Of a stretch of DNA of 64,000 bases, positions 30,485 through 30,696 are shown piece by piece. The notes below the pieces were generated by a model that was not told where the DNA came from, made no database searches, and saw only the letters and a list, made by a program, of their open reading frames with translations. Every line of letters begins with the position of its first letter. The first letter of the stretch is position 1. The stretch lies in NCBI GenBank assembly GCA_965227405.1, contig OZ245758.1, positions 1,513,693 through 1,577,692 on the forward strand, in the 5' to 3' direction. The stretch is from Polyangiales bacterium (GTDB lineage: Bacteria > Myxococcota_A > Polyangia > Polyangiales > Houyiibacteriaceae). A program made the position numbers and the translations under genes.

Positions 30485-30696
30485 AACATTTTAGTGGGAA
30501 ATTCTGAAACTTAAAATTTCTCCTTTTTCTTCCGAGAACGCGTCAGCTCGATCGAACTGTCGGTGTCCGGTCGTGACGCACGCGTCCGAACTCTGTGTCG
30601 ATCTGGCTGGCTAAGGAGAACTGCGCTTGCTCGGTGACTCCTCAAGAAGAGGAATTTTGAGTTTCGAGATTTCCCACTAAAAAGGCGGACCAAACC
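30485..30696. repeat. MITE-like element copy 2: TIRs CATTTTAGTGGGAAATTCTGAAAC ... GTTTCGAGATTTCCCACTAAAAAGG plus a 'CGGACCAAACC' tail
   Basis: The arms are reverse complements of each other (about 20/22 nt) and match copy 1 at 9083-9248. The internal sequence is not conserved between copies. Confidence 0.45.

Follow-up and report, generated by a model that had tools for sequence, protein, structure and literature searches.

Why the same AT-rich, inversely repeated ends should enclose unrelated sequences at separate intergenic positions of a much GC-richer bacterial DNA is the question raised by this locus of a Polyangiales bacterium. In the window (the whole 64-kb stretch of DNA that was analysed), two good copies of such a repeat, A and B, and one doubtful relic, C, were found, where a preliminary description had counted at least three copies. 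The repeat family is real and non-random, and the most probable answer, at about 0.6, is a lineage-specific, non-coding and non-autonomous mobile element of the MITE kind that makes no target-site duplication. The MITE label of the preliminary description is partly supported, by the short length, the terminal inverted repeats, the lack of a conserved open reading frame, the intergenic position, the absence from relatives and the polymorphism between strains, whereas neither a target-site duplication nor an autonomous partner was found in the material described below. The element looks like a previously undescribed miniature mobile element, otherwise ordinary, and no description of such an element for the Myxococcota was found in the searchable literature.

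Copies A (206 bp) and B (about 220-255 bp) are non-coding and follow one order of parts: from 5′ to 3′, a GC-rich 5′ box, an AT-rich arm some 35 nt long, an interior rich in GC, the inverted arm and a GC-rich 3′ box, with a short GC hairpin after the 3′ box possibly being a fourth shared part. The arm core is TTTTAGTGGRAAAT and the 3′ box GGCRGACCAAACC, and the 5′ box, of consensus GGGCKCGAAC in both copies, is an addition to the parts listed earlier. When up to 3 mismatches are allowed, the 14-mer TTTTAGTGGGAAAT has five sites in the window, at 9089, 9222 (-), 30489, 30669 (-) and 43197 (-); shuffled sequences gave a mean of 1.21 and none of 100 shuffles reached five, and the exact 9-mer TTTTAGTGG is confined to the same five sites. 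These counts, together with a 3′ box that is identical at 12 of its 13 positions, confirm that the two copies share their arms and a conserved tail. On the other hand, the terminal inverted repeat, previously given as 22 bp, is perfect over 14 nt in copy B, from where it extends imperfectly to about 35 nt, and over 57 nt at 74% complementarity. The arms have a GC content of 29-36%, to be compared with 61% measured for the window, which is lower than the 67% or so stated for the genome. Copies A and B agree at 74% of positions in their left ends and at 76% in their right ends. The two arms of a copy are complementary at 79% of positions in A and 86% in B, and arms of different copies agree at 72-74%; several positions differ between A and B on both sides and still pair, although few sequences are compared. 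The interiors (82 nt in A and 116 nt in B, with 57-60% GC) are unrelated, as had been noticed, with a local alignment score of 14 against a shuffle mean of 14.5.

All parts are given here on the forward strand. In copy A, whose whole unit, present or absent between strains, spans 9077-9282, the 5′ box GGGCTCGAAC (9077-9086) starts at the left edge of the indel and matches the GGGCGCGAAC of copy B. It is followed by the left arm (9089-9121, 36% GC, with an E-value of 3.7e-7 in an nhmmer search with the arm profile), the interior stuffer (9122-9203, 57% GC, fold z=-0.25), the right arm (9204-9235, 31% GC, detected by the 14-mer scan and the arm profile), the 3′ box GGCAGACCAAACC (9236-9248) and, within the 206-bp indel, a 3′ extension (9249-9282) made of a small hairpin and 20 nt. 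This 3′ hairpin, CCGGTCCAGACCGG, starts at 9247 and thus overlaps the 3′ box. Copy B runs from 30478 to 30696 and perhaps to 30732. Its 5′ box lies at 30478-30487, its left arm, TTTTAGTGGGAAATTCTGAAACTTAAAATTTCTCC, at 30489-30523 (29% GC, nhmmer E=8e-9), its interior stuffer at 30528-30643 (60% GC, fold z=-1.2), its right arm, which ends in ATTTCCCACTAAAA, at 30648-30682 (34% GC, detected by the 14-mer scan, the inverted repeat and the arm profile) and its 3′ box, GGCGGACCAAACC, at 30684-30696.

The strongest evidence for mobility comes from copy A, which is placed between a redoxin/thioredoxin-like gene (8461-9072) and the gene of an NtrC-type sigma-54 response regulator (9298-10668), in agreement with the earlier remark that one copy directly precedes a sigma-54 regulator gene. 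Three contigs from independent samples, L002 (SRR29593758), found through an exact-protein look-up of the regulator, and L019 (SRR23272279) and L020 (SRR23272290), found through look-ups of cluster members, match the window at 97.7-98.3% identity in both flanks of the copy, and all three lack exactly the 206 bp at 9077-9282. In the empty site, ...TAACGCG is joined directly to TGATAGCG..., the sequence of the three contigs being ...CGCT(A/G)ACGCG|TGATAGCGTCCGTTCATG, and 20 bp separate the redoxin stop from the regulator start. The polymorphic unit is thus larger than copy A as previously delimited (9083-9248). Comparison of the filled with the empty site, the sole testable one, showed no target-site duplication, with a junction ambiguity of 1 nt (G). 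The left edge of the indel falls at most 1 nt from the onset of the similarity between A and B (GGGC...), a coincidence not expected of a random deletion, and the right edge (9282) lies 34 nt past the shared 3′ box. This right junction is real, since L013, which is more distantly related (its regulator shows 95% protein and 81% DNA identity), likewise has no resemblance to the window beyond the same GTGATAGCG on the upstream side. In L014, whose regulator is 86% identical, an extra gene occupies the position of the copy, and all the relatives examined vary in the sequence that precedes the regulator gene. A gain in the lineage of the window and a precise loss in the others are equally possible from these sequences, given that the three empty-site contigs may be a single clade and that L013 and L014 are too rearranged for use as an outgroup. 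In any case, a break at the element's own boundary, whether by gain or by loss, is the behaviour of a mobile element. As minor observations on this region, the three empty-site contigs all start at one point, some 600 bp before the regulator gene, and the gene of a 513-aa PEGA/TPR protein (6260-7801, -) contains a 12-nt tandem repeat (7268-7466) of about 12 in-register copies, which encodes a disordered repeat of the PT type.

Copy B occupies a different context, between the end of ribE (stop at 30459) and that of a gene running towards it (30735-33266, -), and is directly followed by a bidirectional intrinsic terminator (30699-30732), revealed by a terminator scan as 15 pairs followed by a T run, which separates the two genes. 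The product of the convergent gene, 843 aa long, has the shoulder domain of the major vault protein (PF11978), unusual in bacteria, and is kept at the locus in every relative examined (L009, L010 and L011). The terminator may be the 3′ hairpin of copy B itself, to judge from an alignment in which the 3′ hairpin of copy A matches the terminator stem CCAGTCCTAAGACTGG with one double change from G:C to A:T, a homology that is weak in that 47 of 2000 shuffles score as well. The relatives L010 and L011 have a different terminator sequence at this position.

A comparison of copy B with an orthologue was provided by L009 (SRR29593758), 96.5% identical to positions 29110-40968 of the window, which carries the copy at the same place, with its 5′ box kept as ...GCCGCGAAC, an identical 3′ box and an identical terminator (0 substitutions in 38 positions). 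The 5′ box and outer left arm differ at 1 of 33 positions and the outer right arm and 3′ box at 1 of 36, whereas the inner left arm differs at 2 of 17, the inner right arm at 4 of 17 and the interior at 12 of 105, with 14 additional gap columns. When pooled, the outer arms and boxes differ at 2 of 69 positions, against an expectation of about 7-8, and the inner arms and interior at 18 of 139; at four-fold degenerate sites of the two flanking genes, 7% and 15% of positions differ. For this one sequence pair, such values are suggestive of an interior and inner arms that drift at about the neutral rate, and of outer arms and boxes that change more slowly. The slow outer ends could be due to use by the host, to homogenisation between copies or to chance. 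A low divergence of the outer arms at an orthologous position is contrary to what a dead selfish insertion would show, and the host could thus use these sequences. Within the stem, a C-G pair of one copy corresponds to C-A in the other and the neighbouring T-A also to C-A, and elsewhere one pair is lost and one gained; no compensatory change was found between the stems of B and its L009 counterpart.

The third copy of the preliminary description is at best a decayed relic. Copy C (43079-43225, +) consists of three short matches collinear with B, GCGCGAAC at 43079, GAAACTTAAA at 43117 and TCCCACTAAAAttCAGACC at 43200, lacks the left arm core and goes undetected by the arm profile HMM even at E<100. 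The contigs of relatives break off at the corresponding locus, L021 and L022 within a different repeat at 58 bp past the upstream gene and L023 within yet another one. That different repeat, CATTCCGCTTCGCGGATCYGGAAG..GGAAGCTTRGGAG, is a second family, with two members in the window (42803-42857 and 57001-57055) that are 85% identical and lie downstream of gene ends. It is probably multi-copy, since the short-read contigs L021 and L022, from strains with 98% identity, stop inside it, and similar AG-rich palindromes fill the intergenic region between ribE and the vault-protein-like gene in L010 and L011. Directly upstream of copy C there is also a hairpin (42975-43070; GGGCGAATGATTTCACCGGGAGGAGTCGAGTAGAGGAG...) whose 46-nt arms pair at 80% of positions across a 4-nt gap, so that three different repeats lie side by side in one long intergenic region.

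Regarding its distribution, no member of the family occurs in about 70 kb of sequence from relatives with 74-85% DNA identity, corresponding loci included. Thus, in L010, L011 and L012 (80-85% DNA identity), ribE and the vault-like gene are separated by an additional gene of 257 aa and by other, AG-rich palindromes, and no TTTTAGTGG element occurs at that locus or elsewhere in about 53 kb. The preliminary description had considered that the arms might be conserved at orthologous positions in relatives; in the relatives examined they are not, which favours the mobile reading. Neither further copies nor solo arms were detected by nhmmer without filters, using the arm profile HMM, in about 190 kb of window and related contigs. 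Public collections were scanned with an exact pattern of the right arm and tail, CCACTAAAAN{0,1}GGCRGACCAAA, by which diverged members would be missed. Among the GTDB representative genomes there was a single match, in a coding region of a Patescibacteria genome with 31% GC and hence due to chance, and none of the six matches in JGI metagenomes had a left arm nearby. A shorter pattern gave four chance matches in IMG/VR, and blastn with copy B found nothing among the PLSDB plasmids. A larger element or autonomous partner with the same ends did not appear in the exact-pattern scans of these collections either. Exact-protein look-ups for ribE, the vault-like protein and redoxin returned no records, probably due to other start codons in the recorded genes. 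The homologues of ribE and of the regulator are named after metagenome-assembled genomes of Polyangiales/Sandaracinaceae (Myxococcota). As for the enzyme, no transposase, integrase, Y1/HUH or RAYT protein was present among the roughly 30 window proteins scanned against Pfam, and for the remaining genes of the window the gene lists of related contigs showed none of these either.

A distinct hairpin family was found in a related species, with a regulator 95% identical (L013, 2491-2639, and L023, 4493-4531; both from SRR23287145). Its architecture is the same, in that a GGGCG forms the 5′ box and arms some 35 nt long enclose a GC-rich stuffer, and its AT-rich arms, GGGCGAGCAGATATATTTCTTCTTAAACACGAAAACTCTCAAA ... 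TTTGAGTGTTTTCGTGTTTAAGAAGAGAAT, are not alignable to those of the window; one contig ends inside a copy. The same architecture with different arms would fit pairs of transposase and ends that diverge together.

The conserved stem raises the alternative that the repeats are structured RNAs, either small RNA genes or cis-regulatory hairpins of 3′-UTRs and intergenic regions, whose closing stem would be kept as a target of RNase III, for stabilisation or for attenuation. All copies are oriented like the upstream gene, the arms match better within a copy than between copies, the outer arms are conserved between strains and copy B ends at an intrinsic terminator. In addition, each whole element folds much more stably than its shuffles, with z=-8.4 for B and its terminator together and, in A, z=-3.0 on one strand and -3.7 on the other. 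This excess comes from the arms alone, however, and the interiors fold like shuffled sequences, with z from -1.2 to +0.7. No Rfam family matched the whole window at gathering score and there is no tRNA; at relaxed E-values, both copies gave terminator matches only, far below the thresholds of the families, that is, terminator noise. A scan limited to promoters of the sigma-70 type found none in A or B, and the strong terminator of B has as its counterpart in A a weak hairpin lacking a T run on the + strand. The substitutions between the stems of the window and of L009 break pairs without compensation, copy A is dispensable in three near-identical strains, and the element is missing at the corresponding loci of relatives. 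The family of structured small RNAs that the preliminary description had offered as a second possibility is therefore quite unlikely, as is, in particular, a structured sRNA with a functional interior, whereas a transcribed long stem that acts in processing or termination as a side effect is plausible. The open reading frames that cross the arms are in different frames in A, B and the B copy of L009, because a run of A has 4, 5 and 6 nt, respectively. With none of them conserved, a small protein or toxin was rejected, and the lack of coding capacity stated at the outset stands. Also discarded were a sigma-54 promoter in the tail, for which the GG/GC spacing is unfit by inspection, and integron attC sites, Tn3-type 38-bp ends and retron ncRNAs, in the absence of any sequence or context match and of a reverse transcriptase or integrase adjoining any copy.

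The outer ends may also be regarded as DNA signals. If the arms were paired binding sites for a host regulator or for an AT-preferring nucleoid protein, the difference between strains would be ordinary turnover of intergenic indels. AT-rich inverted sites in GC-rich DNA, outer arms and boxes that change more slowly in B (2/69) than the neutral level of about 11%, a copy upstream of a regulator gene and an upstream region of that gene that varies among relatives would all agree with this explanation. It becomes most improbable when it is considered that the sites are not conserved at corresponding positions, that copy B lies between convergent gene ends with no promoter to regulate, that the edge of the indel coincides with that of the repeat, and that A and B have in common two asymmetric boxes and a whole order of parts, well beyond a single motif. 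Closer to a mobile element is the REPIN model, in which two inverted palindromes of the REP type would move as a single-stranded hairpin through a single-copy RAYT (HUH/Y1) encoded elsewhere. By definition, the REP unit is itself a palindrome that folds as single-stranded DNA, and the RAYT gene is flanked by repeats (PMC3337134). Like REPINs (PMC3337134, PMC3116915), the repeats studied here form a long hairpin from two inverted units and a spacer, and are extragenic, non-autonomous, lineage-specific and free of a duplication at copy A; the arms carry a GTGG just outside a weak GAAATT...AATTTC symmetry, the element is flanked by runs of T and A as in some REPIN groups (PMC3337134), and the different arm families of related species would fit a co-evolution of the REPIN/RAYT kind. 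Unlike REPINs, the arms are AT-rich instead of GC-rich and not palindromic: folded alone as single-stranded DNA, the four of them reach -0.6 to -2.8 kcal/mol, with z between -0.05 and +1.3 against shuffles. Moreover, the spacer is long (80-116 nt) and variable, the end boxes are asymmetric, at variance with a pure REP doublet, and the window holds no Y1/HUH gene, RAYT included. Membership in the REPINs is thus very unlikely, and the element is not filed among them because its arms are not palindromes themselves and its boxes are asymmetric. A single-strand mechanism similar to that of REPINs may operate on it.

The preferred reading, a MITE-like element that makes no target-site duplication, has partial parallels in other groups of bacterial repeats. 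With the Correia elements of Neisseria and the pneumococcal RUP it shares a length of 100-300 bp, the lack of coding sequence, the terminal inverted repeats, the intergenic location and a presence that varies between strains. Like them, it would also be transcribed with neighbouring genes as a long hairpin. Correia elements and RUP make a target-site duplication (TA for Correia), and their copies share the interior. By contrast, the one testable site showed no duplication here, only the ends are shared, two asymmetric GC-rich boxes lie outside the inverted repeat, and no partner insertion sequence is known. A TA duplication with arms starting at GTGG was considered and rejected; it is compatible with the sequence, but the polymorphic block includes both outer boxes. 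The ERIC/IRU repeats are likewise imperfect palindromes of at least about 130 bp in transcribed intergenic DNA whose internal content varies between copies, and are not known to have a transposase; their copies share a core consensus along the whole length, and they differ from the present element in belonging to another phylum and in having no sequence similarity to it. Asymmetric, structure-forming ends and the lack of a target-site duplication are also found in the palindrome-associated elements derived from IS200/IS605. These have a separate subterminal hairpin at each end, whereas a single long hairpin spans the whole element here. Nor do A and B display a common target tetranucleotide, their left flanks being ...ACGCG and ...TTGGT.

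For this MITE-like element, the mobilization would start with the recognition of its conserved ends, of about 45-50 nt, by a transposase or recombinase acting in trans and encoded elsewhere in the 9-Mb genome. Given the absence of a target-site duplication, this enzyme would make no staggered cut, and mechanisms without such a cut include HUH/Y1 single-strand transposition, recombination of the DEDD/IS110 type and rolling-circle transposition. Once inserted, the element would give the transcript a hairpin of 35 bp or more, and copy B would also adjoin, or supply, a terminator. Copy A alters the spacing of the redoxin and NtrC-type regulator genes and probably also their co-transcription; it would probably uncouple the two genes, as it adds a hairpin where those of the empty site are only 20 bp apart.

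A bolder possibility, and an unlikely one, is that the element belongs to an undescribed class present in Sandaracinaceae-like myxobacteria, composed of duplication-free hairpins with AT-rich arms, asymmetric GC-rich boxes and a terminator-like 3′ hairpin, whose species-specific arms would co-evolve with a dedicated single-strand or non-DDE enzyme, in parallel to REPIN/RAYT and structurally distinct from it. Duplication-free mobile hairpins with host-conserved ends and species-specific arms have mostly been studied as REPIN/RAYT in Proteobacteria. If such a class were real, the host might use its members as portable modules that terminate transcription, or insulate it, between closely packed genes. 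As it stands, the element adds one modest entry to the known miniature repeats of bacteria, and it would be more interesting if many genomic copies were moved by an enzyme that leaves no duplication. It marks structural variation at the level of strains and can break or confuse assemblies and gene calls.

Other segments of the window are also repeated or variable between strains. Two adjacent paralogues of about 800-840 aa (46481-51439, -) form a tandem duplication of 2.44 kb with 79-83% identity (D2, D3), and the one tested has no Pfam match. A block of 1.1 kb (37335-38445) with two genes, one for a weak STAS-domain protein (37369-37809) and another reading frame ending at 38447, is missing in L009, in which the genes on either side abut, and has TAG at both junctions. 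In L019 and L020, the place of a 3.75-kb segment with NmrA-like, isochorismatase and pirin genes (11485-15236) is taken by 1.3 kb of unrelated sequence containing two small reading frames, so that the segment represents a strain-variable island with conserved flanks. The same two contigs, at 98% identity, lack a near-perfect hairpin of 153 bp (17001-17153; RNA fold of -125 kcal/mol, z=-13), which in the window lies between a trypsin-like gene and a convergent dnaK that overlap by 4 nt in its absence. This hairpin, of a family distinct from that of the TTTTAGTGG element, has GAGCG at both junctions, and its right outer arm, CGTGAGCGGTCTA, overlaps native flank that is also found in the empty site, GAGTGGTCTAG, from which it follows that the left arm is an inverted copy of the target.
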